Part shown: positions 11,119 through 52,363 of the stretch, one piece after another
Position numbering within the stretch: the stretch's first letter is position 1
Layout of the letters: each line of letters begins with the position of its first letter
Assembly (NCBI GenBank): GCA_000091205.1
Contig: AP006488.2
Source: Cyanidioschyzon merolae
Lineage: Eukaryota
Strand: one strand, 5' to 3'
Length of the DNA stretch: 64,000 nucleotides
Notes under the pieces: generated by a model
The model's input: the letters and a program-made list of their open reading frames with translations, nothing else
What the model was told of the DNA's origin: nothing
Databases searched by the model: none
Made by a program: the position numbers and the translations under genes

Positions 11119-12021
11119 CTAGCGCCGGGCAGCCATTTGCATCCGGAACGCAAGCACCTGTTGCCGTTGATCCGGAGGCAGCGCTTGAATCTGCGCTGGG
11201 GTCAGCGACATTAACTGTTGAATCAGAGCCTCTTCAGTCGCAGCGCCTTGACCCGGAACGATGCCTCCAGGCAGCGGTGCAGCAGCGCCGGCTGCAGCAC
11301 CAGACTGCACCCTCTGCATCGCCGCCAGGCTCGCATTCGTAGTCACCGATGCCGTCATACTCTGCAGATATTGCTGTGCCTGTTGAGCGCTGAGCAGGCC
11401 CAGTAAAACCTGGGCTTGGAGAATCGCATGCGCTATCGGTGGATGCGCAGCCAACATCGCGCGTACTTCATTGGGATTCTGCTGGGCGATCGTCTTCAGT
11501 TCAGCGAGCACATCGAAGATCTGCTGGAGACTGAGACCCTGCAGAGATGGCTGTCCGCTTGGGAGCAAAAACGGTTGAACTACCTGTGCAGCCGTCACTG
11601 TCGGTCCAGTCGGCTGTGACGGTGCGGTAGCGTCCGCAAGAGCGTCGTAAGCGCCCCAGGATGCTGCTGAAGCTCCAGGACCCAGCCCAGGGCCCGATCG
11701 TCCGCCCTCGGGCGCTGCTCCTGCCCCCGGTGCAGTGGACCCGCCAGCACTTGCCTGATTCCGAGTCTGCGAACTCGGGGCGATCCGCAGCATTCGTCCT
11801 CCGAACTCTATGCGCTCATTGAGGTTCCGTACAGCACTCTCAGCTGTCTCAGGGTCGCGGTACTCACAGAAACCGTAGCCCTTCGGTTTGCCGGTCTCTT
11901 TGTCGTAAAGGATGCGTAGACTCACCACCGGACCTACTTGCTGCAAGCGTTCTAGCAGCATATCCTCCGTGACTCCATAGGGTATGTTTCCGATAAACAC
12001 AGTGCAGGAACCGCGACTCAT
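11119..12021 (-). CDS. Cleavage stimulation factor 64 kDa subunit (CstF-64/CSTF2-like; Rna15 family)
   Basis: RRM: CTVFIGNIPYGVTEDMLLERLQQVGPVVSLRILYDKETGKPKGYGFCEYRDPETAESAVRNLN. Hinge: PNEVRAMLAAHPPIAHAILQAQVLLGL. C-terminal domain: LTPAQIQALPPDQRQQVLAFRMQ. Start at the MSRGSC ATG (12021); the ORF is open upstream to 12303. Confidence 0.75.
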   Translation of the reverse strand: MSRGSCTVFIGNIPYGVTEDMLLERLQQVGPVVSLRILYDKETGKPKGYGFCEYRDPETAESAVRNLNERIEFGGRMLRIAPSSQTRNQASAGGSTAPGAGAAPEGGRSGPGLGPGASAASWGAYDALADATAPSQPTGPTVTAAQVVQPFLLPSGQPSLQGLSLQQIFDVLAELKTIAQQNPNEVRAMLAAHPPIAHAILQAQVLLGLLSAQQAQQYLQSMTASVTTNASLAAMQRVQSGAAAGAAAPLPGGIVPGQGAATEEALIQQLMSLTPAQIQALPPDQRQQVLAFRMQMAARR

Positions 12022-12240
12022 TGCGGTTCCGAAGCCAGCGTAACCCGAAGAGGACTGCCAGTGTTCCCAGAACCTCCCTGAACTATTCCGCCTCGACTTT
12101 GCAAGGCAGAGAGCCGCAAGAACGCCACCTTGTTGACCTGGTGTGCGTACACTGTTCGTTCGACTTGGAGGCGGATCAGTGTCAAAATAAGAACACCAGA
12201 TGTGAGCGTGCAATTGTGGCGAGCTAGTCGATGCCACAAC

Positions 12241-12262
12241 GGCAGGCAGGCAGGCAGGCAGC
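12241..12262. repeat. (GGCA)n microsatellite
   Basis: ggcaggcaggcaggcaggcagc just upstream of the CstF-64 start region. Confidence 0.85.
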
Positions 12263-12562
12263 CAGGCAGCAGGATAGGAAAACGTCAGTCGTTTCCGCGA
12301 CAATTGCGAATGCTGTACGAGCCTGCGAGCGCTTCCTGCTTAGCGGTGTCAGCAGGGCGAAGGCCCGTTGACGGAAATTCTTCTCGACTGTTTAGCAGAA
12401 GACCGAGACGCTGGTCTAAAAGCACAGTATGTTTGTGTGCTCCGTTCAAGAAACACGAGGAAGCGGCAGAGAACTTTTCACCAGCTTCGTTGCTGGCGTC
12501 AGTTCCTGTGTGATCAGGAAAACGAACGACGTTTCACGACCACAGTGTAACTGTGTATATGT

Positions 12563-13950
12563 CCAATCACAGACGCCTCCCAGCCTTTTTTGATCGGTTG
12601 CATGCTATCGATTTCTCCTTCTCCTTATACACTTTGACCTTGAGAGGCGGCCCGACGACGTTGGATCGCGTCAGCTCCCCTGGTCTCGTCTTCAGAACTG
12701 CACATCTCCTAATATTGACAGCGGCACTGAAGTCTCCGTTCACGAACTCCATGCGTTAATCGCCGTTGGTGGAACTCGTTTTTTTCGAGCATTCCTGGGA
12801 CTCGTGCCTTCTGACCCATTTCCGGGTCTGTCAGCTCTCCGTGCTTTCGCATCGCCGAGGCGCTCCGCTCCTGTTCCTCCATCTCGATCTTCTAAAGCGT
12901 GCACCGCTGCCCATCTTTTGGACTCTTCATTTCTTCTAATGAACGCACTTGTTCGTATGCTTCGGTGAGGAACTTCCCAGATCGGAAAGGACTTGCACAA
13001 GAACGACGACATGTGCCCCGGTGTCAACGTGTGGTGAGCGCTTCAGCGACTCGCCCAGTGGAGCGAACACTGCGTTTCACGATACAAAACCCTCCCTCGA
13101 TGTGGATCAGCCACGGAGCGTACGCAGGAATCCAGAGCAGCTCTACTCCCAAAAGAAGAATTGGCAAAAGCCCGAACGCAAAGTGAAATGTCTTGAATGA
13201 TTCGACGAAATGGTTGGTGTTGATGGATAAGCCTTCTCTAGGAGCGAAACCGAGGTCGCCAAATGAAGCCACTGCAGCTAGAACAGATGACGATGTCGTC
13301 GTTCTCTTCGAGACTGATCGTCAATGCAACGGGCTCCCTGCTCCGCGAGTACCCATAGACACTCTGGGCGCTTCGTCCGAAGAAAGCCTCATCAACTGAA
13401 AAACAAACCAACCGATATTCCTGTGCTTTACACAGATCGTGACTTTCCAGGAACGCTGCAGTCGTTGGGAGTTCGGCGGAAGATGGCCGAGCGTGAACTA
13501 GGACTTTATTGCGACTGTGTCCCAGTGTTTTCAGGACCGCACGAGCCGGCTGTTGAGAATGAGTGTCGCCCCTGGTGGCTGTTATCATCGCTTCTGCCGT
13601 CCGCAAGTAGATCAAGGGGTCGTTTTCTACCAGTAACCGGCAGCAATTTTTGAGAACGTTGGTTATTTGCATAGAGCGCATATCCTGCTTTTTTCAGTGT
13701 TCCTCAGCCATCTGAGAACTCTGGTACGACTGGCGTTGAGGAGGAATGCAATCTTCCAAGCACGGCTCAGTAAAGAACATATCCTAAAGGAGATTCTTCT
13801 ATGATCTTTATGGTGCGTTGAAACGTGATGCTTATCCCGAGCTCTACACAGCGAAGAAGCATTCCATTCCATGGCTCGGCAGGGGAAACAGAATTGAGTT
13901 GAAAGACTGGAAACAGTACTGGCGCGAAAAAACTGGCCATTTCAATCGAT
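12563..13950 (-). repeat. Copy A of the ~1.4-kb noncoding dispersed repeat family (element reads on minus strand); left arm of inverted repeat
   Basis: About 98-99% identical to copy B over about 1.2 kb with no indels (A position x pairs with B position 31580-x; checked at four ORF pairs). 3' terminus ccaatcacagacgcc is the reverse complement of ...ggcgtctgtgattgg. Inner (5') end diverges from B beyond about 13750, but the shared 5' landmark gtctttcaactcaa is present in reverse complement at about 13891-13907. Confidence 0.85.
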
Positions 13951-14199
13951 GTCCCACGGCGGGCTAGAACTGAGCAAACAAGCTATTATCCTCGTATTCA
14001 AGCCTGGCTTTTACGTGTTGGGTGCCCCGTTATCCGGAGCAAAGTGTTGCGTACTTCTTTAGCTGCGGATAACCGGCGTGCACCAAGGGATCTTCGGTTA
14101 GCTTCAACGAACCCAAACTAGCGAAAAAATCAGCACGAGGTTTGCTCATTGCGTTGCCATTCAACGAAGAGCTGCGCACTTTGATAAAAGCACTGTTAA

Positions 14200-15198
14200 A
14201 TGCTTGATCATCAACCATGGATTGAGAAATACAGACCACGGACGCTCTCTGAAGTCGTCGGCAACCAACCAGTTGTCGAACGACTGCGAGCACTGGCTCT
14301 TAGCGGGAACGTGCCGCACTTGCTGCTCGTTGGTCCACCGGGCGTCGGCAAGACGACCGTAGCGCTTGCTTTGGCGCGGGATACTCTGGGCGATGCGCTC
14401 ATCCAGCAAGCAGTTTTAGAATTGAACGCATCAGATGAACGAGGTATTGACGTGGTGCGAAACAAGATCAAAATGTTTTGCCAACAGCACGTGACCTTGC
14501 CGCCGGGACGACATAAGCTCATCATTCTCGACGAAGCGGACTCGATGACGCCCGCAGCACAGCAAGCTCTACGCCGTATCATGGAACTCTACTCAAGTAC
14601 CACACGATTCGCGCTTGCCGCAAACGTCTCCAGCAAAATCATCGAACCAATACAGAGTCGTTGTGCTGTCATTCGGTTTCGTCGTCTTGGCGATGAAGCG
14701 GTGCGCAGTCGCCTTGTCAGCGTTCTGGAAGAAGAGCACGTTCCGTACGAGCCGGACGGAATCGAGACCATTGTCTTCACGGCCGATGGTGATATGAGGC
14801 AGGCCCTGAACAACGCCCAAGCGACGTGGTTTGGTTTCGGAGTCATTACAACGGAGCATGTGCTGCGTGTATGTGACTCACCGTCGCCAGCACGGCTGCG
14901 TCGATTTCTCGAATTATGTGAGACACAGAAATTTGAGCAAGCAGTTGGCGAGATTGAGGCGATCTGGCGTAGTGGGTACGCAGCGTCGGACCTAGTTGCC
15001 ACGCTGTTTCGGGTGGCTCGAACTCAGGCCATGATCACCGAAGGTGGAGAGCGTGGGCGAGACCTGCGGCTCGAGTTCCTGCGTGAGATCGGTCTAACGC
15101 ATATGCGGATCACGGACGGCTTATCAAGTCTGCTGCAACTCACTGCATTGGCATCGAAGCTGGTCCGTTGTGCTGAACGTATCCACACAGCCCAATAA
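14200..15198 (+). CDS. RFC2: Replication factor C small subunit (human RFC2 / yeast Rfc4-like AAA+ clamp loader subunit)
   Basis: Walker A GPPGVGKTT, DEAD-like ILDEADSMT, SRC motif IIEPIQSRCAVIRF, and C-terminal DGDMRQALNNAQATWFGFG. Full-length 332-aa single ORF. Confidence 0.85.
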   Translation: MLDHQPWIEKYRPRTLSEVVGNQPVVERLRALALSGNVPHLLLVGPPGVGKTTVALALARDTLGDALIQQAVLELNASDERGIDVVRNKIKMFCQQHVTLPPGRHKLIILDEADSMTPAAQQALRRIMELYSSTTRFALAANVSSKIIEPIQSRCAVIRFRRLGDEAVRSRLVSVLEEEHVPYEPDGIETIVFTADGDMRQALNNAQATWFGFGVITTEHVLRVCDSPSPARLRRFLELCETQKFEQAVGEIEAIWRSGYAASDLVATLFRVARTQAMITEGGERGRDLRLEFLREIGLTHMRITDGLSSLLQLTALASKLVRCAERIHTAQ

Positions 15199-16167
15199 GT
15201 TGGAACTGAGCGTGTGCGTTGGTCTCCGAACCAGGGCGAGAACTTGCTTCGGCGGTTGCAACATGCTCTGCGGGACTGGGCTCTAGCGAAACAAGCGGGT
15301 GCGTTCCAGTGGGAAGATGTTATTCAAGCCTGGTCCAGCATGGCTGCCGCACCACAACTAGCAACTTTGTATCTGTTTTGATTTATCCGTGTTCGTGTGT
15401 GGATCGCTCAGTGAAGCAGCATGGGCGTTCTGCCGGCATATCCAGCGTGATGTTGGGGGCGCTGCTATCTTTGGGTGACGATTTCACCATGCGCGTTAGA
15501 ACACGAGCTGGGTATTCGAATGCAGTCTGGTACAGGAGTCGAGCTCGGGCGTATGCATGACCTTCAGTCGACACATGCTTTTGAGCTTTATCGAAGGCAT
15601 GGTTCAGCTGCAAAGGCGACACGGGGCAGAATGTATTTGCGTTCGTGAGGCATACCCACCCGCGGGCTCGATGGCGTCGATGCTCGGGAGAAGCATCCGC
15701 CTCACGTACGTCCCGATTTGGCGCCCTGCAGTCGTCAAGAACTCATGGGTAGCTCGAGTGCCAGGGAGAAGCATCCGCCTTGGGAGGAAACGCTTCGAAG
15801 ACCCTTGAATCGTCAGAAAATGGCTGGTAGCTCGACATAGACAGCGGCTTCTTGCGTACATGGCCTTTCTACATTCGTCGCTGTGCAGAGTATCGGAAGC
15901 TTCAGGCTTCAGCGCGTCACACCATGCGACTAGACGCCGCCTCAACCCAATCATCTAAATACCAGTGCGCTTTGTGGATGCGACAGCGCCAAATAACATA
16001 TCCATACACAACGACTGCGCGCGCTCGCATCAGTGCAGCCTTGCACGGTCAGTGCGAACCTGACGCTGTATGCCCCATTGCCTCTACAGAGGCGCTCATC
16101 GAGGCTCTCTGAGCTCATTCACCAGGATGCACCATCTTTCGGATCATATGCGAAAAATTGAGCCGAA

Positions 16168-16881
16168 TCAGGTAAAACCTGCAGTGGCACCTCGCCCACG
16201 TAGCTTGAAAAACCACAAGAGTACCGCAATGATGACCAAAATCACCATCATAGGCCCGTACTGTCGAATCCGTAGCATCCAACGAGCATGTTTCGCTCGA
16301 CGGAGGTACTTGCGCGACTCTGCTGATAGCATGGCGCTGGTATTCTGCAGTGATTCGAGACGTTCGCCCCGTCCAAGCACTTCCTGAATACTCCTCGTCA
16401 TGATGTCGCGCACATCCAAAAGCTCTGAGTTGAGGCGTTCCAGGTTTCGGACAGCACTGGCGTCCAAGTACACTTTCTTCGTCTTTTGGATGAAGCTGTC
16501 GAAGCGAATCATCTCATAGGGTCGGTTCGCCAGTGCCACCTGGGCTCCATAAACTGCTTCAAACTCCCGTCGAAGTTCGTCGAGAAACGCGAACGCCAAC
16601 TTTCGCGGATAAGCTTTTTCGCTCAGCGTCAAGAAAGCCACCTGGTCACCAAGCAAATAGTGAAACGTGAAGGCGCCCGATTCGATGCTGGCGGCTTTCC
16701 GAGAAGCCGGAACGCTGCCGCGTCCGCCAGCCAAGTACTCGGCAGTGAGACCCTTGAGGATCCGTTTCGCCTGTCGCTCGTACTCTTGAAGCTCTAGCGC
16801 GAACGCGTCCTTTTCGTCGGCCAGGGAAGCTGCGAGCGGCAGTCCATCCGTCAATCGCGAGATGAACGTTATCTTTGGCAT
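16168..16881 (-). CDS. SEC22: SEC22-type R-SNARE (longin domain, SNARE motif, C-terminal TM)
   Basis: [20 protein letters not shown] (longin N-terminus as in Sec22b [20 protein letters not shown]), FTFHYLL...[33 protein letters not shown], SNARE heptads, then hydrophobic tail [15 protein letters not shown]. Start moved to the internal ATG at 16881. Confidence 0.75.
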   Translation of the reverse strand: [237 protein letters not shown]

Positions 16882-17649
16882 CAAAACCTGTTGCGAAGCG
16901 TCACTAGATGTGGTTGTTCGGAGAGCGGGCCACAGCGATGCCAACGATACATCGGAAAGTGCTGGATTGCCCAGCGGACCCTAGTGCGATGCCTAGCGCT
17001 GCGGCTGACTCTGAACCGAGTACCGTTCGCGAATGGAAGCGATGAGCCTAAGTCTTCGGTCGCTACGGAACGAGTTCTGGAATCTTACACAGTTCTCGCA
17101 AGATTTCGTGTCACAGGATGGAATACAGAGCGGAAGCACACATGGAACGCGCTCTCAGGGACTGGGGCGTAGTGTCTGCGTCACCAGCCTCGATTCTCGA
17201 ACACTACATCGGTAACGTCTCTAGTCTCAATAAAGAGGATCGTCCGGTACAGGCTGCGCTTTATTACGGTCTTTGTGCCTCGTTCGCATGCATATTCGGG
17301 GACAATACGGAGGCTGAGTAGAAGACATGCCTGTTTCGATCGAAGGGAGATCGCGACGTAGGTATTCTCGCGATGGTGACAAGCATCCCTGGCCAGCTTT
17401 TACCTGTGTCATGGTGAAAATCGAGGCAAGCAAACGATTCGCAACGAGTACGCAATATGCAAGTGTAGCAACGCTGCATAGAACAGGGCATGCAAAGAGG
17501 TTGCATCTCATGGCGAGAAGCTTGGCGGTGAAGCGCGCATTCCAATGCACTCGAGAAGCGAGTTTTCCCAGTACACGTATTTCAAGATCATAGCGTTACG
17601 GTCTTTTGAGTTTCAAAGCTTTGAATATGGTTGGGAAGCAGACCTGAGG

Positions 17650-19017
17650 ATGAGTAGCGCTGCAGAGGTAACGCGATACCGGCCTTTGTTAACGTCTTTC
17701 AACTCAAATTTTGTTCGGCCCCGGTTTGGTGAATAGCAGGAGATCGAAATGACCAAGCAATGTACCCTATAGATCGAGGACGAATTGCCCGTACGGTATA
17801 CAATCTTTACTGAACAGTGCATGGAAGATTGCATTCCTCCTCAACGCCAGTCGTACCAGAGCTCTCAGATGGCTGAGGAACACTGAAAAAAGCAGGATAT
17901 GCGCTCTATGCAAATAACCAACGTTCTCAAAAATTGCTTCCGGTTACTGGTAGAAAACGACCCCTTGATCTACTTGCGGGCGGCAGAAGCGATGATAACA
18001 GCCACCAGGGGCGACACTCATTCTCAACAGCCGGCTCGTGCGGTCCTGTAAACACTGGGACACAGTCGCAATAAAGTCCTAGTTCACGCTCGGCCATCTT
18101 CCGCCGAACTCCCAACGACTGCAGCGTTCCTGGAGAGTCACGATCTGTGTAAAGCACAGGAATATCGGTTGGTTTGTTTTTCAGTTGATGAGGCTTTCTT
18201 CGGACGAAGCGCTCAGAGTGTCTATGGGTACTTGCGGAGCAGGGAGCCCGTTGCATTGACGATCAGTCTCGAAGAGAACGACGACATCGTCATCTGTTCT
18301 AGCTGCAGTGGATTCACTTGGCGACCTCGGTTTCGCTCCTAGAGAAGGCTTATCCATCAACACCAACCATTTCGTCGAATCATTCAAGACATTTCACTTT
18401 GCGTTCGGGCTTTTGCCTATTCTTTTTTTGGGAGTAGAGCTGCTCTTGATTCCTGCGTACGCTCCGTGGCTGATCCACATCGAGGGAGGGTTTTGTATCG
18501 TGAAACGCAGTGTTCGCTCCACTGGGCGAGTCGCTGAAGCGCTCACCACACGTTGACACCGGGGCACATGTCGTCGTTCTTGTGCAAGTCCTTTCCGATC
18601 TGGGAAGTTCCTCACCGAAGCATACGAACAAGTGCGTTCATTAGAAGAAATGAAGAGTCCAAAAGATGGGCAGCGGTGCACACTTTAGAAGATCGAGATG
18701 GAGGAACAGGAGCGGAGCGCCTCGGCGATGCGAAAGCACGGAGAGCTGACAGACCCGGAAATGGGTCAGAATGCACGAGTCCCAGGAATGCTCGAAAAAA
18801 ACGAGTTCCACCAACGGCGATTAACGCATGGAGATCGTGAGCGGAGACTTCAGTGCCGCTATCAATATCAGGAGATGTGCAGTTCTGAAGACGAGACCAG
18901 AGGAGCTGACGCGATCCAACGTCGTCGGGCCGCCTCTCAAGGTCAAAGTGTATAAGGAGAAGGAGAAATCGATAGCATGCAACCGATCAAAAAAGGCTGG
19001 GAGGCGTCTGTGATTGG
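17650..19017 (+). repeat. Copy B of the ~1.4-kb repeat family (plus orientation); right arm of inverted repeat
   Basis: See copy A. 5' landmark gtctttcaactcaa at 17694. 3' terminus ...aaaaaaggctgggaggcgtctgtgattgg at 19017. Small ORFs inside mirror those in A on the opposite strand. Confidence 0.85.
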
Positions 19018-21765
19018 GTATATAGACTCTCTATGGTCATGAATCGTTTAACTAATCAATGATCGAATATCACGAATGCTTTTGTGTAGTCTATGCTAGT
19101 TTCAGATTATACTGGAACACTGAATCACGCACTCTGTTCCTGCCTTGCGAATGTTTGAGAGCATATTTAAAGATAAAGCCTCGAGATTCGAAGTTGAACA
19201 GAAAGGCTTCGCGGATGCATGCGTGGTAGTAGAATTCCCGGGCGTCTTCTCGGAAAGGCAACTGTCAACTTCTGCCTCTGGAATCCGTTACAGTACCATA
19301 ATCAGGATATTTCGAGGCATTCTCGAACAAGAGTTCTTCAAGTATGCCATGTCATTATCCAGCCCATTCATGCAAGCCCCCAGGCGGCTCCTTTCCTGAC
19401 ATGTTGCATCGCTCAAATGAAGCAGTCTTCAATGTTTCGCTCTTTCTGCTTCAAGGCAGCTCGTGTCCGCAGTGATTCGCATCTCTGGACGGTTACGGAA
19501 AAATCTTGAATTGGTCCCTTGATAACTTATCCGCAAGCTCATGCCAAATATTCTCTGAGCTTCTAACTTCAAAAAACGAATTCCATTCCAAAGATAGTTC
19601 CTGATCTTCTTGTGCGCATCAACGATACAGCGTCGGACTGCACCGAGATCCATTCTCAGGATATACTCTCAAAGCCTCCTGTCTCTTCTGTATGCGTGGA
19701 ATTGGGTCTTGCGCTTGGGCTTTAGTCATCGCAGCGATCATGTGTAGTGGAAATAGCGTCACCGCAGTGAATGCAGGAGGCGCAGAAGTATCAAAAGGTG
19801 CTGGCATTTTCTGCGCCATGGCAGTTTCCGTCCGATACTTGTTCCATCGTGGACAACATCGTTTGCCAAGAATCCTATATACAAATCGGAATACCGTGCC
19901 CACGCATGTGCAGCGGACAGAGAACGTACCAATGGGATCGTCCGATGAATCCTGTGATCTTAGGGTACAGCACGGATTACGGAAACTGAGAAGAGCATGC
20001 GGGAGTGCTTTCCCCATCCGTCATGGATACGTACCTAGCGATGTAACAAGCTTTTGCGCGCGACAAGGCACCTCTCGGAGAACAAGGTAAGGTGGATGTA
20101 TGCTAATAACTCAGTACAATCAAGTGCCACCGGTGCGTAGAACGCACCAAGGATGTATACTAGGACGGGAATCGGCAAGCGGACCTTAGAACGCAACTTG
20201 TTCGAGAGCATGGAACTCGTCGACGAGTGCTGGAAGCTACAAAATGGGGACTCGGACGCTTTTAGCAACATACTTCGACTGCCGAATATGGAGCCGGAGG
20301 AAAATGAGAGACTCGAGCTTTTAACGCCAGAAATAAACGAGCAAACTTGAGATCAATCGCAGAAAACGCACGTAAGGTCCAGTTTTGATGAAAATAGGAA
20401 GAGTCCAAAACTTTAGAGTGCACGCCCGGGTCACTGAACCCGTTCATCTTTCATCCACCCTGGTTGTAGGAATGATTTTATGAACCAGGAGTCCCACAAG
20501 GGTGCTCCTAATCGATACTCAGAGAAGTGCCCTCTACACTGCTCTGCTCCGACGCCCCGGCGCTCCATTTGCCACAGACCGGACTTGTCTTTGGGGCAGG
20601 GGCATGAAAAACCAAGGAGCACCTCGTATGAAGCATTGATCCTCTGGCAGCGACACAGTGAACGATGCAGTCTGCGAGTCGACGTCCGCAGAATTATGCA
20701 TGAAGATGTAGCCGTCTCTAAGTGCGCCCCATCAGAGCCTTGAAGTCTTAAGTCCGTGAGTAAGCGTCCGCAAGGATGTGTCCTAAGTTACTGTGAAATT
20801 TCCGTATAATAGAGCTGTTGTTTTCGGCACTCCAAGAGTCAGGAAATCGATCAGAGCTCTTTTCCTGAGGAGAATGCTGCCGAGCTGGAGCTACTGGGAT
20901 ATAAAGGCGTTTCCGGAGGAGCCAGTACCTCTTGTTCTAATAAACGGCAGCAGTTGCATATCCTGCAGGTTCTCGTTAGATACACCGATGGTGCCTCAAT
21001 TTAAATAGGAATCTGCACCTGCACGCGAAACGCTGTGTTGTCCAGTAGCTCGGCTGCAGCGAGCTTCCTGGGGCGGCACAGGGCAGCTTGTAGACGAGTT
21101 TACACAAATTGCGATGCCGTAGACGCTCGCCTCGTTCGACTCCAGTCCTGACTGCAGGCAGTAACGAGCGCTTGCATCGGTGCCGATAAGAAGCACAGAC
21201 CTTTACGTTTCGACCGCTGATGCATTGTGGATTCGACTCGAGCCAACGACCAACTGAGCAGGCGACGTCTTGAGAAACAAGCAAACGGCACACTGGTCAT
21301 GTAATGAAAAGCAAGTTGCGAGCATTTCTCGTCGGGCTCCGGACGTGGCGAGAGCAGGTCTCAACGCGAAAGCCAACGTCCAAGTGGCGCAGCCGAAGCT
21401 TGGTATTCGACTCTGCTTCATCGAACCAAACTGAGGTATATACTTTTAAAAAAAAAGTAATGTGACTGTCATTGCAACAAACAGTCCCTTTAAGGATCAA
21501 TACAGGTAGCAAAGCCGTAAGGTCAGGCTCCTGCCATCGAATGCCCACCAGAACGATTGTATCGCAAGGTCATCCTTCGCTGCAAAAGGTACAGTGCGCA
21601 GTAGTGGTGCCGCTCTCCTCGTATGCATTTTACCAATAGATTCGTCAGACGCTTATTTCCTGATGTGAACGGCAGGCACGACAACCGCTTAACGGACCTT
21701 GGACGCCGACAGGCACAAAACCTGTTCTCGTAGAGCTCCAAATCTACACAAACATACAAAAGCAT

Positions 21766-23689: not shown

Positions 23690-24035
23690 AACGAAGAAGA
23701 GCAAGTGGCGAAGAAAAGGAATGAGCAGATAGACCAGAAAAAGTGTTTGCCCGACGGGCTGATGACTGTACTCTAGTGGCACAGAGGGCATGAGTTCTAG
23801 TAATTCGTACCAATGTGCTTTCAGCCAGTGTCAAGAAACGCAAGGTGTTGGTGAAGTGAAACCTCAGCGCCGCCATCAATATCAGAAAATGTGTGGTGCT
23901 GAAGACGAGACACGAAGAGCTGACGCGATCCAACTTCACGGAGCAGCCTCTAATACTCGAAATATACACGGAAAAGCTGAGGCCTATTGCGGGGAGGCGG
24001 TCAACATAAGGCTGCGAAGTGTCTGTGAGTTGGCG
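23690..24035 (+). repeat. Copy C: 3'-terminal fragment (about 350 bp) of the repeat family
   Basis: Shares the conserved block ccgccatcaatatcag...tgaagacgagac...gagctgacgcgatccaac and the terminus gtgtctgtgagttgg, then tatac. Ends about 495 bp upstream of the co-oriented kinase start. Confidence 0.7.
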
Positions 24036-24529
24036 TATACGCATATATACGCTATGGTCGCGAAAAGTTTTCCCTTCATTGTCCCGAACACCAGATATCG
24101 TGAGAACTCATGACAGGCTTTTCCGCAACAGTCCATAGAAACCAGTATTGTAGGTCGTGGTTCCGGGTGCTGTACCTAGTTACCAGCGCAGTACTGAGAC
24201 AAGGCGAATGGCCCGTATCCGATGCTCGCAATTCGCTTCCCCGTGAACACCGTTCGAGAGTTCTTGTCGGGTACACGTTTGCTCTGGTCGTCGAAGGCGC
24301 CGTCGTTGGTATACTGGCTACTGGCTAGCGGAGAAATAGAGCATTCTGGGTACAGGTTGCTTCTGAGGGTACTCGAGGCTTCGAAGCGATAGGGCAGGTG
24401 TCATGCCTGGGTGAGTCAGCTGATCGGCAACCGCGCAGCGCTTCGTGTCATCCACACGGGAACGAAGCGAAATTGCTGCGGTTTCTGCACCCTAGTCGTG
24501 CGATCGCGCTGTTCTACATTCGTGGGTGA

Positions 24530-26641
24530 ATGATAAGATCGCATACGCGACGTATGGAATCAGCTGCTTCGGTGCCTTCGGTTTTCGCTGTTCCGATAGA
24601 GGACGTTCTGGCCGCTGTTCAGGGTACACGCGTTCAGTGCATAGATCCTAGTTTCTTTTCGTGTTGGGGTCGCCAAGAACGAGCACGATCGTATCGAGTC
24701 TGGGTGACAGACGACTTTCTGGAGTTACGCAGTTGCCCGTCGTGGCCAAACCTCTTCTGTCTATTCGATCTTGTCGCTGTGCGTGCTGATACGTGTGCGC
24801 TATCTCTTGAGTTCCAGGTATCGAGTATGCGCCTGGAGCGCAGCAATAGCGGCTCGCTGAATTCCTTTGTCGATGAAACCGTGCCGGCAAGTCGAGGTCA
24901 TACGAATTCTGTTCCCATCGCAAAAGTACGACGACTTGTTCTCGTCTTTGAACAACAGCGGATCATGCATCAGTGGTTGAACGCATTAACCGCATGTGCA
25001 CCCTCGTCATGTCAGTTTATGCTGCATGCGCTACCAGTCCAGGGATCAAGGAGGTCGAGCAATGAGCGGCGTTGGCAGGGAGCACACATTCTCGGATTCC
25101 ACGACGAGCTGGGCCCCATCGATGGACTCCACTGGCGCGGGAAACCCTTGACCAATTATCCTAAACACGGCGCTGACGGGCGTTACGTGTTCTTACGTGT
25201 CCTTGGTCGCGGATCGATGGGGGAAGTCCTACTCGCGATGGACTTGTATTCCCGTCGCTTCTACGCTGTGAAACAAGCTATTCTTCGTTGTAGATTTGAT
25301 GCGCAAACGGGCTCGCTCCGTGATACGAGCGCTTGCTGTGACCACAACAACGAGCGAATGTTGATGGAAATGGAGCTCATGCGAGGTCTCCGACACCCTA
25401 ACCTCGTGGAGTTGATCGATATCCTACCCGCTGAACGTCGAGATGCCTCACAGGCACCATCGGACGCCGGCACTGAAGCGATCGTGAATGGCGACACTGG
25501 CCGCGATTCCGCGCAGCCTCTGCCGCCTTTGTTTCATGGCGCTGGTGACCGTCGCACTTGGCAAAAAACTGATGCGAGCCTGGTGTCGAGCACAGATCCC
25601 AAGTCTTGTAGTGCTTCACCCACAGAGCAAATGAACGGTCAGTCGATGGATTCGGATCTGCCTACTGCGAGTGATTCACTCGTGCTTGCTCGCGAGCGTG
25701 ATCGTTTGCGTTGGATCCGCGATTCGGGGCTGAAGCCTCTAGTATCCGATGGGTCATCGCGAGAGCTGAGTGTACCGCTCCAATTGGTCGTCGAGTTTGT
25801 ACCCGGCTTCCCGGTGCTTCAATCCAACCAACTCGTGATGAATCAGTCTTTATCGGAAGATGTTGCGCTTTTCGTACTCTGGCAGGTTGCGAACGGTCTT
25901 GCTACCTTGCATGCTCGAAACATCGTTCATCGCGACATCAAACCGGATAACCTGCTGCTCCATGTGGACGGCACCATTAAGCTGAACGATTTTGGCACAG
26001 CATGCGTCGCCGATGCACCCGATGTCCAATGTCTGGTCGGGGCACCCGCTTTTGTGGCGCCCGAAATTATTTCCAGAGTGTGCCAGATCTGCGATGAAGA
26101 GGACGACGACGTGAGTACGCACACAGCGAGATCCCTGGTTATCGATCCAATAAGAAATCCCGGAGAGCGCGGCGCTCCCCAGTGCCCTACCAGTGGAGCA
26201 ACCCCGGATTCCGAGATCAGTAAGCGGAGCGACATCTGGTCGTTAGGGGCAACGCTCTATTACCTTTTGTTTGGTCGACCACCATTTCTCGGGGACACCC
26301 TATACGAACTCTGTGAGAACATCATGCATCAGTCGGTATCTTTCGACCGAGAGCTTCACCGAAAATGGAGCAACTCGAGCGGGCGTAGTACGGATCGGGC
26401 ACGACCTGCACCCTGGTATCGCAGGCGCCTGTCGCGTACCCGTTCTAACGCGCTCAGCGAAGCGTGCACTGCGCTTCTCCAGGGCATGCTCACAAAAGAC
26501 CCGCGAATCCGACTTGATATTCACGGTGTGCTTGCTCATGCAGCACTGGATAGGTATAGACACATGACCGTTACCGAAATGGAGTACTTTACAGAACGCC
26601 TGCGCGACCAATCAACCAAATCAGGTGCGTTCCGTCGGTAA
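24530..26641 (+). CDS. Serine/threonine protein kinase (CAMK/AMPK-like catalytic domain with a large activation-segment/N-lobe insertion)
   Basis: GxGxxG: LGRGSMGEV. VAIK-like: YAVKQ. HRDIKPDNLL catalytic loop. DFG: NDFGTA. APE: VAPEII. SDIWSLGATLYYLLFGRPPF. About 130-aa low-complexity insert between subdomains IV and V. Confidence 0.8.
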   Translation: MIRSHTRRMESAASVPSVFAVPIEDVLAAVQGTRVQCIDPSFFSCWGRQERARSYRVWVTDDFLELRSCPSWPNLFCLFDLVAVRADTCALSLEFQVSSMRLERSNSGSLNSFVDETVPASRGHTNSVPIAKVRRLVLVFEQQRIMHQWLNALTACAPSSCQFMLHALPVQGSRRSSNERRWQGAHILGFHDELGPIDGLHWRGKPLTNYPKHGADGRYVFLRVLGRGSMGEVLLAMDLYSRRFYAVKQAILRCRFDAQTGSLRDTSACCDHNNERMLMEMELMRGLRHPNLVELIDILPAERRDASQAPSDAGTEAIVNGDTGRDSAQPLPPLFHGAGDRRTWQKTDASLVSSTDPKSCSASPTEQMNGQSMDSDLPTASDSLVLARERDRLRWIRDSGLKPLVSDGSSRELSVPLQLVVEFVPGFPVLQSNQLVMNQSLSEDVALFVLWQVANGLATLHARNIVHRDIKPDNLLLHVDGTIKLNDFGTACVADAPDVQCLVGAPAFVAPEIISRVCQICDEEDDDVSTHTARSLVIDPIRNPGERGAPQCPTSGATPDSEISKRSDIWSLGATLYYLLFGRPPFLGDTLYELCENIMHQSVSFDRELHRKWSNSSGRSTDRARPAPWYRRRLSRTRSNALSEACTALLQGMLTKDPRIRLDIHGVLAHAALDRYRHMTVTEMEYFTERLRDQSTKSGAFRR

Positions 26642-29600: not shown

Positions 29601-30926
29601 GCAATAGCCTCAGACTGATTCTTCTGCTCCGACAGGTTTTGTCTCCTGTTACGCAAGGTCCTTTCATTCAAGAAGAACTTGCTCTTCATTGTATGGTGGA
29701 CTCTATGCCTTCTCCTGTGCTTCTCCGGGTGAGATGGCTGCGGTCGCTGCACCCATCTCCCACTGTACCATCGGAATTCAGATGGTCTGGGTGTAGAGCG
29801 TGCCCGGAATTCTTCCTTTTCTAAGTTCGTGCTATCGACTATCCCTCGAATATGTTTTCATTACCGTTACCCTGCCGAGCACATCAGCGGACTGAATCGC
29901 ACGTTTTCGCTCCCTCCCGCGAACGAGAAGAGCAGCAACAGAGCAGTTGTCAGCTAATGAGCATCGAGAACGACTTTTCTTGAGAAGAATTATCAAAGAA
30001 TGGCATCACGAATGCGAAGGATCCGTCCCTTAGTCCCTGAGCGTGAAAATGGTGTTTGACAAATACGACAGCGCCGTCGACTCGATTGAGACAGCAGGAA
30101 AATCTTGGAAACGAGCTGCTCTCCGCCAGTCTCAGGTGTGTACTCCTTGACCGCTTTTGAATGACAGGAAGCAACGCAGTCGATGAGAATGACACAAGAG
30201 CTTAGGAAGGAGAGGCCATGAAACGCGTCGTCGAAGGATGAGATGTTGGACGATTCTGTCCGTTTGCCGAGTCATTTGCGACGAAACACTTGAATCGCCG
30301 CCAGCTCTAATGTTGTCGGAATGCTCGCTTGCGTCTTCTTTAAAAAACGGCGGTTTGTCTCTCTTTGGCCACTCATGCGCAGGTCTATCTTTTCTCCCGA
30401 ATGCAGTCTCATCGAGTGAGAAGAACACTCGTCCCAGCTGAAAGAAGCGTTCGTGTTTCAGTACTATATCGATAGCGTGTGCTCTTCAAGGCGCGAATTT
30501 ATCGCATACAAGCGCACGTCTTCCACTGTCAATCCGCGTCTCTCCATCACCGCTGTATAAATGGTATGGAAACACTACATCCTGTGGCTTCTCTGACGGT
30601 ACCTCTCAGAGAGCGTAACGAACGGAGAGGATTCATCACGAGACTGCCGTGGACGTAGCGTTTGGTGCGTTACGTGTCGAGTGCACGACGTTCAGAATAT
30701 GGACAAGAAAAAGAATCCACCATCCACGTGCTTACCTTTGCAAGATTGACTTGCATAATTGAGGTCGTTTTTCGCAAGCCAGCGGTGGCAGCATCAAGTC
30801 ATTCTGCGACTTTTCTCTAATCTACAGGATGCATTGCTTTTCTTGGGACCCTGCGAGAAAGACAAACCAAAACGAAAAGCGCGTGCTGTACACGTGTTCC
30901 AGAATTCACTGGTCTGAGTATAACGA

Positions 30927-31766
30927 CTACAAATCTTTCTTGGTATAGGATGGAGGTACCAGTGTGCGGCTATCTTTGGATGCTGCTAGGCGCGGGCGTG
31001 GCGTCATGGCCAGCCGGGGCTCCACATCATGCTGTGGGCGATCCCAGGCCTGCTCCGAGGCGTCGGATGATTCTGGTGCTGTTTCGGAGTGCTCCTCGCT
31101 CATAACCTCGGGGATGGCGTAATTATGCGGTGGCCCAACAAAGGGATCCTCCTGAGGCGGTGCACGAGTAGAGCGAGACGCTGAACGATACTCACCGACC
31201 CAGGACTGCACCGTGTCCTTGACGCCGTGCCACCAGTGGCTTATCGTTTCTTGGGCTTGATCAAGCACCTCTCGCACATCTGTGCTCAGCGATCGGTCCG
31301 TTTCTTGGGGTCCACGATGCTGCTCGCCAGGCGTAGGCGGCGAGGAGGTTCCGCGCGACCCCAATCCGTCTCGGTTGCGCTCTCGAACGCTAAGTGCGAC
31401 TGCCCACTCGCGATCGAACTCTGCTTGTAGGTGGCGAGCTAAAAGGGCGTCCTCGTCAACAACGTTGTCGTCTGTGCCTGCTACAGGTTCCGCGTCGTTA
31501 TCCACGCTCCCGGACGTGCACTGTACTAGGTCACAGTCCCGCAACACTTCTTCGACATTCTGCGGTTCAGAGTTACCTTCTTCCGGTTCGGAAAGGTTGA
31601 CAGCGCTTAGATGCCCCGTGTCATGCGCTTCCTCCAGGAGATAAGCCGCAGCCCGCTCCACGTTGTTTCGATGAGCTTCAAGCACTAGCTCCAGCTCCTT
31701 TCTACTGCGTTGCGGAAAGAGCGCCGCTAGCGCCTCGAGCGCGTCTGTCATGCCGCTGACGTCCAC
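30927..31766 (-). CDS. CUE-domain (ubiquitin-binding) protein
   Basis: N-terminal ALEALAALFPQRSRKELELVLEAHRNNVERAAAYLLE fits the CUE consensus (L..MFP...I...L..T..NVE.A...LL). Remainder acidic and low-complexity. Confidence 0.5.
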   Translation of the reverse strand: MDVSGMTDALEALAALFPQRSRKELELVLEAHRNNVERAAAYLLEEAHDTGHLSAVNLSEPEEGNSEPQNVEEVLRDCDLVQCTSGSVDNDAEPVAGTDDNVVDEDALLARHLQAEFDREWAVALSVRERNRDGLGSRGTSSPPTPGEQHRGPQETDRSLSTDVREVLDQAQETISHWWHGVKDTVQSWVGEYRSASRSTRAPPQEDPFVGPPHNYAIPEVMSEEHSETAPESSDASEQAWDRPQHDVEPRLAMTPRPRLAASKDSRTLVPPSYTKKDL

Positions 31767-33059
31767 CAGCCGCCTTGTTCACTAGACACGCACTCACGAG
31801 TGAGAAAATACACCCGGTTACGTTCGCAACTGCTTCTCGGCGAATGCCCTGTTCACAAGACACGCAATCACGCGTACGATGCTCAGAGTCGTGGCGTTCC
31901 TAATTTCTATTCAACGAATGCCGTGTCGATCGCCTCACGAGCATTCAATGCATCTCGATTGTTTGCAGAAGCGTGGGGGCGTCTCCGATAGCGAGTTCTG
32001 CTAGACGAAGGCTTTTGGATCTGGAGGATGATTGGAGTTCGGTAACGAACGTGGTATGACATGAATTTGAGGCGCCTTTCGAGCACATATGGGTCTTTTC
32101 GATGACCGCTCTCCCCGAGCAGTATGATCTAGTTTTGCAGTCTTGGGTAAGCCATGGGCATCGCGTATGCGTTGCTTATCAGAAGAAGCGGTGTATATGC
32201 TGTTGGATTGAGAGGTATACGTGATTGCCGAGATCGAGCTCGCTCTCGAGAGGGTACGCTACGAGCGGTCCGGTAACGCTCCTTCTAGCGATTGGCCCGG
32301 GGAGGTCCTTGCGCAAGTCGCATCGCTCATCCTGTATATATGTAGCTGTTCACGATGATACCCCGTCACGTCGAACGTGTGCATCCACCTGTCCGCCGTT
32401 CACAAGGAATAGAGCGTAACAAGCAGCAGCACGTGCGCTATAGTTGAGGGAGTTGTTGTTTGTGTCCTACTCACTCTTCTTCTTCTGCTACTGCTGCTGA
32501 TGCTAAAGGACTATATTGGTATTGGATGCGACGGAACAAGCGGTAGGAATGGACGGGAAATCGATAGCTTCATGGAAGAACTTTCATGGATGAAAAGTGG
32601 ACATTAAATGATCGCGCGTTTCCGCCTTCTCGGCACAGTGATATTTTCACCTTAAAAAGAGATATCCAATAGCAGATACCGTAACACTGGAACAGGAGCG
32701 GCATCTCGACCAGATGCGCACGAGATCACGGGCGCATGCCTTCACCACAAGGGCTCATGCTTCAGTTTCTAACACGTTCCTCTGACTTTTTCCACGGTAT
32801 AAGATCCATGATCCCAACCAGATTTCCTCTGGTGGCGCTCAAGCTACAGAGGAAAATGATAGAGGCCTCTGTGATTCGATCATATGGCTGCTCCAAGAAA
32901 TGACGCACCTGTTCACGAGCGAAGACTCTGTCGACGGAAACGCAAACTGTACATGGAGTCCACGCATGTCTAGAGGTTTCCATTGATGGTGTAAAGAATC
33001 CTGGATCCAAACAAGGAATGTCTGGGGTGGCTATGTGTAGTAACCTCAAGCGCTCGAAC

Positions 33060-34455
33060 ACCTACAGGTTCCTATACTCTTTCAACTCAAGTACGTATCA
33101 TCCTTGAAGTGTCGTATACCACGAGATCAAAATCTCAACGCAATATACCGCACAGATCCAGGACGCATTGCCTCTAGTATATGTTCTTTACTGAACGGTG
33201 CAACGAGGACTGCACTTCTCTTTCTGGTCAGTCGTACCGCAGTACTCAGACCGTGGAAGAACGCTGGAAGAAAGAAGTATATGCGCTCCCCGCAAAAAAA
33301 CTGTCATTGTCAAAGCGTGAACGCGGCCAATTGTGGAAAACAACCTGTTGATTACATTACGGAAAGCAAAAGCGACGATGGTAGCCACCACGGAGTCCCT
33401 GTTTCTCAAGAGCTTGTTCCCGTGATCCTAAAAAAACTGGGGTGCAGTCGCCTAGAAGAGCCCTCATTCATGCACGGCTACATTGCATCGAAATCGCAAC
33501 GACAGCGTTCCTCGAACGCCGCGAACGGTATGAAGAACAGGTACGTTGGTTGGTTTTTTCAGTTGATGGGACTTTCTTCGGATGAAACGGCAAGAGCATA
33601 TGCGGGTATGCGCGGAGCAGGGAGCTCGTTATATTTACGATCAATCTCGAAGAGAGCGACGACGACGTCGACATCTGCTCTAGCTGCACTGAATTCATTT
33701 GGCGACCTCAGTTTCGCTCCTAGAGAAAGCTCATACAACAGCACCAATCACTTTGTCGAATCATTGAAGACTTTTCCTTCGCGTCTGGCCACGGCCTTCT
33801 CTTCAACAACGTGGTATTCAACCATTCTTCTTGCGTACAACCGTTTGATGAAGCTATCGGAGAAGAATTGAATTTCGTTCATCTGTGCTCTCCGTGGTTC
33901 GACAGTTTCTTAGGAGTGTTTTCTATCGTGGAAGGTAATGCTCTTCCACTGGAAGAATCGCAGAAGCGTTCAGCTCACAGTGACACACCCGGGCACATTT
34001 CGTCTTTCGGCCGCAAGTCCTTCTTCTTCAGGGAAGCTCCGCAACTAAAGACACCAATAGGTGCGTTCATTTGAAGAAATAAAAAGTCCAAGGGATGAGC
34101 TTGCGAGGGAGGGGGGCGGGAACACACCAGAAGGTCGAGAAGGAGAAAAGACAGCCGAGCGCCTCTGCGATAGAAAAGCATGGACTGCTGGCAGAGCCGC
34201 AAATGGGACGGATGGCACGAGTTCGAGGACTATTTGCATTGATGAACTCAGCTAGCGGCAAGAAATGCATGGAGTTTCTGAACCGAGTCTTCAGCGCCGC
34301 CATCATGATCAGGAGATGTGCGTTGCTGGAGATGATACGCGCAGCTGACGCGAAGCAACTCTATCGGGCAATGTCCCAGGTTCGAGGTACGCTGGAATAG
34401 ACTGAAACCGCTAGCAGGGGCTGGCAATTTTTACTGGAAAGCGTCTGTGAGCAGA
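33060..34455 (+). repeat. Copy D of the ~1.4-kb repeat family (diverged, roughly 75-80% to B)
   Basis: 5' landmark tactctttcaactcaag at about 33066. Internal blocks ctttactgaacggtgca, gatggtagccaccacgg, tctagctgcactgaattcatttggcgacctcagtttcgctcctagagaaagctcatacaacagcaccaatcactttgtcgaatcattgaagac. 3' terminus gcgtctgtgagcag at 34441-34454, about 80 bp upstream of the MOSC ATG. ORF 33104..33871 lies entirely inside it. Confidence 0.8.
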
Positions 34456-34533
34456 TAGTCATTTAACCTATCGTCGCGAAACTTTTCCGCTCTACTGACT
34501 TGACTTCGTGGCACACACGCGCAGCGTACTAGG

Positions 34534-35583
34534 ATGAGGTGCGAAACGCGAGCTGTCGTTACTGGACTCTTTGTGTACCCCATAAAGTCGTGTCGAGGTA
34601 TCGCCATAGAGCAGAGCGCGCTCAGTCTTACGGGTTTGGCTTACGATAGGCTCTACGTCATCGGTCGCCCCGGGGTAGAGGACGGAGGCCGTACGGCGCG
34701 CTTCGTGTCTCAAAGACAAGAGCCGCAGCTATGCCAGCTTGTTCCCGAGCTCGACCTCGAGAGCAGCACCTTGAGGGTGCGCTCGAAGGTAAGACCCGAG
34801 CTGGAGCCGCTGGAGCTGCCATTGGAGGTGTCCAAGGAACGCACCGCCGACACTCAAGTGCGCATCTGGAGCGACATCGTACCCGCAATCGACTTTGGCG
34901 GTGAAGACTGGTTCGCTGCTGCGCTGGACGATCAACTGTCGTATCCAGTTCATATCTACCGAATGCCGGCGACGTTCGAGCGGACTGTTGACCCGGAGCG
35001 GGCGTTCCTGTCGCCGTCATTCGACAGCGTGGTGGGCTTTGCCGACGCGTTTCCCGTATTGCTAACCTCGATGCAGTCGCTTGCGGAGTTAAACCGACGA
35101 ATAGCTTCTCAGTCTGGGGTGGCCCACCAAGTGCCCATGAGTCGCTTCAGACCAAATATTGTCATTGACGCGCTGCCGCTCAATGAGGAACGAGTCTCAG
35201 CAGTGCAGCGCAGGTCTCTGGAGCCCTTCGAGGAGGACACCTGGAAACGAATCCAAATCGGAGAGCAGGTCACGCTTCTAGTCGCGAAGCCTTGCAGTCG
35301 TTGCCGAATCACGACGACAGATCAGGATACCGGCCGGGTAGATGATGCATTTCGGGAGCCGCTGCGCACCCTAGAAACTTTTCGCAAACAACCCCTTGGG
35401 CTGATATTTGGTCAGAATTTGGCACCGGAATACCCACGGCGATCTGGACAGCTTCTTCGTGTCGGTGATGTAGTGCAGGTGCTCGAGTGGCAGACCAACG
35501 ATTCTTCACCGTGGTGGTGGCAGCGGCTCTATCGCGGTTTCTGGGGACGTGCGTCCCGCCCTGAGCGTCCAACGGCGTCGTAG
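34534..35583 (+). CDS. MOSC-domain protein (MOSC_N beta-barrel plus MOSC; mARC/YcbX-like molybdenum cofactor sulfurase C-terminal domain family)
   Basis: N-terminal LFVYPIKSCRGI (MOSC_N hallmark), FADAFPVLLTSMQSLAEL, RFRPNIVID, and conserved Cys in LLVAKPCSRCRITTTDQDTG. Confidence 0.8.
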   Translation: MRCETRAVVTGLFVYPIKSCRGIAIEQSALSLTGLAYDRLYVIGRPGVEDGGRTARFVSQRQEPQLCQLVPELDLESSTLRVRSKVRPELEPLELPLEVSKERTADTQVRIWSDIVPAIDFGGEDWFAAALDDQLSYPVHIYRMPATFERTVDPERAFLSPSFDSVVGFADAFPVLLTSMQSLAELNRRIASQSGVAHQVPMSRFRPNIVIDALPLNEERVSAVQRRSLEPFEEDTWKRIQIGEQVTLLVAKPCSRCRITTTDQDTGRVDDAFREPLRTLETFRKQPLGLIFGQNLAPEYPRRSGQLLRVGDVVQVLEWQTNDSSPWWWQRLYRGFWGRASRPERPTAS

Positions 35584-52086: not shown

Positions 52087-52363
52087 ATATGCATTTACCC
52101 TGCACGGCCGTAAGGCATTATTTGTTTCAATAACATTTGTATCACGACCAAGGTAACAGAACTTTCGCTCAGTACCGACGAAAATCGATCCTCAAAACGC
52201 AGCCCAAACAACACACCCCTGGTCAAGCTCAAAATCTTGCGGACTGTGGCACAGTCGCCTTTAATCCTGAAAGTTCTTTGGTACCGCGGCGGCAGATGCA
52301 GGGTCGGCAACATCCGTTGCACACGAAGGTGTTGCTCATTCACGAAAAGGTCTTGCATTGCTT

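Follow-up and report, generated by a model that had tools for sequence, protein, structure and literature searches.

The DNA analyzed here, hereafter the window, is a stretch of 64,000 nucleotides of nuclear DNA, on contig AP006488.2 (assembly GCA_000091205.1) from the red alga Cyanidioschyzon merolae. It contains seven copies of one element of about 1.4 kb, found by blastn and designated A to E, F1 and F2, which we identify below as transposon relics with a remnant of the nuclease Fanzor1 at their 3' ends. One of them, the full-length copy D (33070..34499, plus strand), lies between a CUE gene (minus strand) and a MOSC gene (plus strand) and supplies the 5' leader and very probably the transcription start of MOSC. 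In the intact sister family CMe-1A, the right ends of the elements lie against the start codons of co-oriented host genes much more often than expected by chance. We favor a reading in which the Fanzor relic D gives MOSC its start, right ends of the sister family favor co-oriented gene starts, and the element replaces the promoter that its insertion displaced; we regard this as probable, though well short of certain.

MOSC transcript 5' ends map inside copy D

The MOSC coding sequence (34534..35583, plus strand; ATG at 34534) is intact and specifies 349 aa with 73% identity to the homologue of Cyanidiococcus yangmingshanensis. In hot-spring samples a homologue is present, P0001, that is 99% identical and differs in one residue. 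P0001 is encoded on 15 short contigs, eight of which were retrieved (L090-L097). These are colinear with window positions 34247-36477 and 100% identical to the window upstream of the MOSC ATG. Five independent assemblies, L090-L094, each 100% identical to the window, begin at 34247, 34254, 34256, 34257 and 34275 and thus define a cluster of transcript 5' ends at 34247..34275 on the plus strand. L090 and L094 end in poly(A) after 36477, where the genome continues with GTCATTC. This non-templated poly(A) identifies both as polyadenylated transcripts of the plus strand and places the poly(A) addition site of the MOSC mRNA at 36470..36477. Additional RNA 5' ends occur on the same strand at 34372 and 34400. 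In the Logan assemblies L096 and L097 an Illumina adapter is fused directly at these two positions, and L095, a Joint Genome Institute (JGI) contig, starts at 34400. These ends may be alternative starts or processing sites of the kind expected for omegaRNA, the guide RNA of Fanzor and TnpB nucleases. DNA contigs of the same species (L098-L104, 13-29 kb) pass unbroken through the positions of the transcript 5' ends, and the breaks are therefore specific to RNA.

The MOSC mRNA thus begins inside copy D and on the same strand as D, about 250 nt inside its right end, at the start of the module that is conserved among the copies and 21 nt before the codon that corresponds by homology to the 'MEFVNRD' stretch of Fanzor. 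Its 5' untranslated region (UTR) measures at least 260-287 nt and consists of element sequence except for the last ~35 nt. A preliminary description of this DNA had proposed that most of the promoter and 5' UTR of MOSC derives from the element and had named transcript 5'-end mapping as the means of checking this. Polyadenylated contigs do start inside D, and the transcript 5' ends, the poly(A) and the uninterrupted DNA contigs together support the proposal; D almost certainly supplies the MOSC promoter as well.

Comparison with relatives established that D was inserted at this position. Cyanidiococcus and a second relative both retain the gene order kinase, CUE (minus), MOSC (plus), PRK at the syntenic locus; the element is absent there, and the CUE-MOSC spacer measures 360-400 nt versus 2768 nt in the window. 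Because it is missing from both loci with their short spacers, D is an insertion. The relatives are 67-75% identical in coding DNA, and an empty-site alignment, attempted for D and for the M18 aminopeptidase site described below, failed since their intergenic DNA could not be aligned. Conservation of the D module among strains (zero differences over 34122-34533 in three strains) was discarded as evidence; the comparison is biased because the loci had been retrieved by exact match to the open reading frame (ORF) 34095-34400. At its other end the MOSC mRNA carries a 3' UTR of 894 nt (35584-36477), unusually long for a compact genome, which overlaps a 123-aa antisense ORF (35933-36304).

The elements are relics of a transposon with a transposase and Fanzor1

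The preliminary description did not recognize what the element is. Long ORFs are missing from every window copy, and in comparisons between copies no reading frame scores better than the other five, so that the copies are non-coding and decaying neutrally. The codon-phase periodicity of substitutions among them was weak and uninformative. Identity between copies is 66-75%, the exception being A and B with 97-98%, and the copies, with a mutual divergence of about 30%, are old relics. ORFs of single copies gave only a marginal Pfam match to DDE_3, and a consensus was required for a firm assignment. A majority consensus restored a plus-strand reading with a few frameshifts. Its first ~300 codons matched Pfam DDE_3 (PF13358) with E=1.2e-12 and 48.3 bits (curated cutoff 28.6), preceded by a weak N-terminal match to HTH_Tnp_Tc3_2 (E=8.6e-4) below the cutoff of that family, and were 35-39% identical to intact transposases of ~300 aa.

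The last ~85 codons of the consensus belong to a different protein. They are 64-76% identical to the C-termini of metagenome proteins of 259-511 aa, which carry GADPGNTN, PVDEFRTSY and NRDFNAAINIRRC, the three RuvC motifs of Fanzor and TnpB. Near its C-terminus the consensus reads FVNRDFSAAINIRRC, including the RuvC-III motif as NRDFSAAINI, which in copy D has become N-R-V-F-S-A-A-I-M-I. Copies A, B, C, D and F2 align to residues 310-421 of the metagenome protein P0124 at 40-60% identity. The full motif set (GADPGNTN, DEFRTS, NRDFNAAINI) was found only in the relatives L018, P0124-P0131 and L087, and a complete nuclease with the RuvC-I Asp, the RuvC-II Glu and a zinc-finger region is not present in the window: tblastn with a Fanzor of 723 aa matched only residues ~639-723.

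Copy D may accordingly be divided into a frameshifted IS630/Tc1-like DDE_3 transposase pseudogene (33143..33940, plus strand; consensus Pfam match, tblastn with P0122 and P0123), a Fanzor1 remnant comprising the last ~85-110 codons with RuvC-III (34122..34450, plus strand; tblastn, 59% identity to P0124 residues 311-381 and also matched by the 723-aa Fanzor), and a non-coding tail (34451..34499, plus strand) that reaches the approximate right end, where the homology among A to E stops. The same order was encountered in two metagenome contigs. On L087, from an AT-rich other organism (JGI sample 3300050213), positions 402-3124 encode an intact IS630-like transposase of 295 aa, followed after 39 nt by an intact Fanzor1 of 598 aa; judged by its sequence, this is a candidate for an autonomous element of the ancestral architecture. 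On the Cyanidioschyzon-like contig L085 a decayed transposase directly abuts a full Fanzor. We conclude from these comparisons that the window elements are non-coding relics of a composite DNA transposon that encoded a DDE transposase of the IS630/Tc1-mariner type and then Fanzor1, a eukaryotic RNA-guided nuclease resembling TnpB. The window type is therefore an internal-deletion derivative of such a composite. About residues 1-638 of Fanzor1 have been lost from it; the transposase survives as a pseudogene, followed by a linker that varies between copies, the final ~85 codons of Fanzor and a tail of ~50 nt.

When the 5' ends of copies A, B, D and E were aligned locally with their reverse-complemented 3' ends, only chance-level similarity and hence no terminal inverted repeats (TIRs) emerged, nor was a TA target-site duplication (TSD) evident at the approximate ends of the window copies. 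An interpretation of the element as a multicopy gene on the minus strand, raised by the fact that copies start with TTACTGAAC, the reverse complement of ...CTVQ-stop, was rejected because the six frames score equally and the consensus codes on the plus strand.

Right ends of the sister family often lie next to co-oriented start codons

CMe-1A is a published 'WSV486-like' repeat of ~3.2 kb with 150-253 copies that make up 5% of the C. merolae genome and lack TIRs (PMC3627910, PMC1955436). The metagenome loci L005-L086 contain elements of ~3.1-3.2 kb whose Fanzor proteins show 83% identity over 325 aa to CMe-1, the Fanzor1 published for C. merolae. Cyanidioschyzon-like metagenome contigs were scanned with the Fanzor C-terminus, and of the 325 matches the best 80 were used, from which 77 loci were retrieved; collapsing identical flanks left 41 unique sites. 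Every copy ends in a common tail of ~65-75 nt after the stop codon, followed by unique flanking DNA, and BLAST coverage falls from ~80 loci to zero at the end of the tail, which defines the right end sharply.

Counting at each of the 41 sites the nearest ORF downstream that reached 150 aa, 28 were co-oriented with the element and 13 opposite (p=0.028). Two small genes supported by Pfam, Tim10 and CpcD, had been missed by the 150-aa cutoff; their ATGs lie 17 and 90 nt past the right end, and taking them into account gave 29 co-oriented and 12 opposed (p=0.012). The distances were more telling than the orientations. Right ends lay a median of 54 nt from an ATG and of 208 nt from a convergent stop codon (Mann-Whitney p=0.007). 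An ATG lay within 60 nt of the right end at 17/41 sites and a convergent stop codon that close at 3 (p=0.003), and with native spacers (400-1700 nt, a range taken from annotated Cyanidiococcus loci) at most ~15% of sites would be expected within 60 nt (p=4e-5). The downstream ORFs are ordinary host genes, among them those for KTI12 (whose domain starts at residue 1), Tim10, a Macro protein, an M18 aminopeptidase, a kinesin, an HCO3 transporter, CpcD and cytochrome b5. The preliminary description had suggested that elements sit in sense orientation close to gene starts; this holds for the sister family and was not significant within the window.

Two copies indicate that the tight arrangement is not acquired slowly. 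L079 (3312-6389) and L081 (1-3078) are 99.25% identical over 3079 nt and lie at separate places in the genome, one before the M18 peptidase gene and the other before Tim10. Their identity ends 4 nt past the right end, and the host ATGs follow ~13 and ~28 nt further on (17 and 32 nt from the right end). Since these near-identical copies already lie so close to ATGs, the arrangement exists from the outset; the pair also indicates that the element moved very recently in the metagenome organism.

A GT-rich run was present at the right-end junction in sense orientation at 11/41 sites and in antisense at none; GT-rich runs upstream of native genes showed no strand bias. In a search for a target motif in native upstream regions, most of the enriched k-mers came from the element tails, and CMe-1A left ends could not serve as a control for the left side because the 5' regions are mosaic. 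We found no published report of right ends abutting co-oriented start codons or of a host mRNA initiating in a Fanzor 3' module.

Some further features of individual loci were noted. At L012 (~3048-3183), L016 (~2675-3012), L035 and L048 a full-length CMe-1A starts ~40 nt past the tail of an older relic and in the same orientation, so that the gene-proximal spot appears to have been hit repeatedly. In L078 (1-2032) and L079 (5641-7992) a Fanzor copy without a stop codon reads in frame through its tail into the M18 aspartyl aminopeptidase, the ATG of which lies 97 nt after the former Fanzor stop. The published 5' terminus of CMe-1A, CGATGACAAAACGTTTAC, taken from the consensus in Additional file 2 of Bao & Jurka (PMC3627910), was found reverse-complemented just upstream of a left end in L005 (~8570-8603). 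It is similar to the right-end sequence AAAGGCGTTTGTT when the latter is reverse-complemented, and on this similarity a short imperfect TIR may have been overlooked in CMe-1A.

True 3' ends and orientation of the window copies

The preliminary description had placed the 3' terminus of the element at GCGTCTGTGA, which occurs in A at 12576-12567 (minus strand), in B at 19004, in C at 24019, in D at 34441 and in E at 52073. This motif encodes ...RRL-stop, where intact Fanzors read ...GRRLHVSWRRFV; it is the decayed stop region of Fanzor and not the end of the element. Alignment of the 3' regions revealed that homology among A to E extends ~50-57 nt beyond it, which puts the real 3' ends at approximately 12510 (A), 19064 (B), 24083 (C), 34499 (D) and 52134 (E). 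It follows that D ends ~35 nt before the MOSC ATG. Intact 3' ends number five, where four had been counted. Co-orientation of A with CstF-64, of C with the kinase and of D with MOSC was confirmed, at distances shorter than first given (~488, ~446 and ~35 nt).

The arrangement had been considered unlikely to arise by chance. In so compact a genome, however, elements can persist only between genes, and the null probability of co-orientation is therefore 0.5, so that three of five co-oriented ends yield p=0.5 and three of four p=0.31. Moreover, A and B are not independent because they are recombined arms with 97-98% identity. For these reasons one might hold that relics merely survive between genes with ends that face starts and stops equally, at distances limited by the short spacers, and that the module has no role for the host. 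The window by itself suits this explanation well: E is convergent with its neighbor, and the spacing of A and C (450-490 nt) falls inside the normal range of 400-1700 nt seen in Cyanidiococcus loci. Against it stand the MOSC transcripts that start inside D and, in the sister family, both the 29:12 orientation and the excess of ATGs over convergent stops within 60 nt. Chance is thus already contradicted for D and for the sister family, and as a general account we consider it unlikely. The pairs of A with CstF-64 and of C with the kinase fit the tendency of the family and are individually indistinguishable from chance.

A guide-RNA module as a proposed promoter

Guide RNAs of Fanzor and TnpB (omegaRNA/fRNA) are encoded in the 3' part of the nuclease ORF plus the tail, the guide extends past the right end, and transcription past the right end has been documented for Fanzor fRNAs (PMC10530073). 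The module retained in the window consists of the Fanzor 3' end and the tail. The 5' end of the MOSC mRNA coincides with the upstream edge of this module, from where the transcript continues past the right end. By analogy, the retained module would correspond to the guide-RNA-encoding part of these elements. A guide RNA would have to be transcribed outward, across the right end and into the flanking DNA. Such an outward-reading transcription unit could replace the promoter displaced by the insertion, and insertions in sense orientation immediately 5' of genes would thereby be tolerated or even favored and so persist. In the CMe-1A tail a terminal hairpin is kept in two versions, CGTTCGA...TCGAACG and ACGTTTTTC...GAAAGGCGT, it contains G-U pairs, and it is more stable in sense than in antisense. 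This lends weak support to a structured RNA, and RNAalifold on the CMe-1A tails returned a 4-bp stem only.

Several observations weigh against the proposal that the element acts as a substitute promoter. The assembled 5' ends of the MOSC transcripts are not cap-mapped and could be processing sites of a longer RNA, as the discrete ends at 34372 and 34400 hint. Among the window copies, close spacing is confined to D: the ATGs that A and C face are ~450-490 nt away, E converges with GH31, B has no nearby gene, and exact-protein look-ups found no transcripts on record for CstF-64 or the kinase. For the population test a sister family of a different species was used, with genes taken from a crude ORF map, and the orientation bias is modest at 68-71%. 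Neither a TSD nor a target consensus was detected at the 41 CMe-1A sites and neither TIR nor TSD in the window copies, so that targeting is at most a possibility. Finally, an omegaRNA of this Fanzor family is only putative; the tails of the window copies fold no better than shuffled sequence (z -0.4 to +1.4), and an Rfam search gave no match.

The first of these points leads to a further explanation, namely that the MOSC promoter lies upstream of the module, in a more 5' part of D or outside it, that the ends at 34247-34275, 34372 and 34400 are cleavage products of a read-through transcript, for instance from omegaRNA-type processing, and that the element contributes the leader only. Three distinct classes of 5' ends, two of them with exact adapter junctions, are compatible with this, as is the processing of TnpB and Fanzor guide RNAs from longer transcripts (PMC10530073). 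Yet none of the eight transcript assemblies extends upstream of 34247, whereas the DNA contigs do. A leader of more than 1.4 kb through the decayed transposase would hold many upstream ATGs, and tblastn with the 723-aa Fanzor detected no intact nuclease in the window that could do the processing. We regard read-through with processing as quite unlikely.

Targeted integration without promoter function is the more improbable alternative: the machinery would recognize features of 5' UTRs or start regions (open chromatin, R-loops, a motif), co-orientation would follow from the mechanism, and the host genes would be expressed by other means, which agrees with the very recent copies L079 and L081 already tight to ATGs, the new elements repeatedly ~40 nt past the tails of older relics and the sense-only GT-rich run, but no TSD or consensus target was found, the MOSC transcript does start in D, and an insertion 12-60 nt from an ATG puts the native promoter ~3 kb away, so that element-borne promoter activity seems necessary for housekeeping genes like those of Tim10 and KTI12.

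Replacement of the displaced promoter by the right end of the element thus accounts best for both the MOSC transcripts and the sister family. A bolder version can be put forward only tentatively, and we doubt it more than we believe it: Fanzor1 of Cyanidiophyceae would be directed, in sense, to a position a few dozen nt upstream of start codons, and its guide-RNA unit would serve as a portable promoter for a sizeable share of housekeeping genes. If this were true, each omegaRNA guide would be the 5' leader of a host gene, and Fanzor would gain a built-in link to host gene expression that is regulatory or addictive.

Relation to known systems and significance

The closest published repeat is CMe-1A. 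Its C-terminus and tail are the homologues of the 3' module found in the window copies (51-66% aa and ~70-75% nt identity). The metagenome loci agree with the published description in their size of ~3.2 kb, in having no obvious TIRs, in their mosaic 5' ends and in being transcribed and present in many copies. The window copies themselves are not CMe-1A: they measure 1.4 kb, contain the pseudogene of a DDE transposase and are missing ~640 aa of Fanzor. In the literature the class of CMe-1A is given as unknown and its distribution as random (PMC3627910, PMC1955436); Nozaki et al. described C. merolae repeats as 'distributed randomly' (PMC1955436).

Published elements that combine a Mariner/IS630 transposase with Fanzor1 have the architecture of the intact L087, the decayed L085 and the presumed ancestor of the window copies. 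They differ in carrying TIRs of 24-33 bp and TA TSDs, neither of which was found in the window copies, and the transposase of the window type is a bacterial-like DDE_3 protein. With the guide RNAs of TnpB (IS200-IS605) and Fanzor (PMC10530073) the window module shares its composition of ORF end plus tail up to the right end, an RNA 5' end ~250 nt upstream of the right end, transcription into the flank and, in the intact sister family, a conserved terminal hairpin. Unlike a small guide RNA, however, the RNA observed here is a polyadenylated host mRNA of 2.2 kb, the window has no nuclease, and neither guide-RNA structure nor covariation could be shown for its copies.

Transposon-derived promoters as such are already known, and what is new and unusual here is the guide-RNA end of a Fanzor transposon as donor. 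Outward promoters of mobile elements include the out-promoters of bacterial insertion sequences, solo long-terminal-repeat promoters and promoter-proximal miniature inverted-repeat transposable elements. Common to these and to the present case is that a transposon end forms the start of an adjacent co-oriented host gene. Here, in contrast, the donor is the guide-RNA end of a transposon with an RNA-guided nuclease, and in the sister family the arrangement is not sporadic but the commonest single configuration (17/41 at ≤60 nt).

Work on Fanzor has so far been mostly biochemistry and genome editing, and the natural role and mobility of these nucleases in eukaryotic hosts is an open question. This question becomes testable because the right ends precede co-oriented housekeeping genes by 12-60 nt at a large share of sites, and because C. 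merolae is open to genetic work and has a completed genome sequence with ~250 copies. The case of MOSC indicates that even a long-dead relic still gives a conserved gene its transcription start. Promoter replacement would explain how a compact genome of 16 Mb tolerates 5% of its DNA from one transposon family. Relic copies also reshape gene order, as the inversion flanked by A and B illustrates.

Other copies, the A/B inversion and neighboring genes

Copy A (12510..13890, minus strand) is a full-length relic delimited by blastn, the 3' alignment and the 5' motif TCTTTCAACTCAA; ~310 nt separate its 5' end from the ATG of RFC, and a look-up for transcripts of a 61-aa ORF within it found none on record. 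Copy B (17733..19064, plus strand; blastn, 3' alignment) is full length, and its 3' end faces 2.7 kb without a recognizable gene and then the 3' end of a CBU_0592-like gene. In copy C (23777..24083, plus strand; blastn, 3' alignment, tblastn), which is truncated at the 5' side, only the Fanzor remnant and the tail are left. Copy E (50640..52134, plus strand) is full length with an intact 3' end that converges with the GH31 stop codon at 229 nt. F1 (57601..58390, plus strand) is truncated at its 3' side and F2 (58353..59540, minus strand) lacks the 3' tail; the two meet tail-to-tail at 57601-59540, with the 3' tails lost in both. The 5' end of F2 had been located about 100 bp from the GST-zeta ATG (59613); we measured ~75-125 nt, in divergent orientation. 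Further diverged DDE_3 transposase relics at 30318-30834 and 47475-48011 (both minus strand) were detected solely by tblastn with intact transposases, and no Fanzor remnant was detected beside them.

Copies A (12529-13776) and B (17804-19047) form inverted arms that are 97-98% identical only from 17804 onward, while their 5' ~100 nt are as diverged as in unrelated copies. The RFC-VAMP7 block between them (14198..16881) is inverted relative to Cyanidiococcus and the second relative, and everything else is colinear. The inverted block, the identical arms and the diverged 5' ends together argue for recombination or gene conversion between two old inverted copies, and on this sequence evidence the inversion is probably transposon-mediated.

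The genes of the window are intron-free and tightly spaced. Pfam searches of the window ORFs identified CstF-64, RFC, a longin SNARE, a kinase, CUE, MOSC, GH31 and GST and bore out the gene names (CstF-64, kinase, MOSC, GST and others) of the preliminary description, in which the ATG positions 12021, 24530 and 34534 and the motif coordinates were likewise correct. The CstF-64 coding sequence occupies 11119..12021 on the minus strand (ATG 12021; RRM_1, CSTF2_hinge, CSTF_C), and that of the protein kinase 24530..26641 on the plus strand (ATG 24530; Pkinase), with a start that agrees with the relatives. Between the CUE start codon and D, 1.3 kb (31752-33069) are unexplained, without a Pfam match or repeat; this segment alone exceeds the whole CUE-MOSC spacer of the relatives, which is merely 360-400 nt, and may be another, fully decayed insertion. 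At 42805-42938 a unit of 67 nt is tandemly duplicated with 93% identity.

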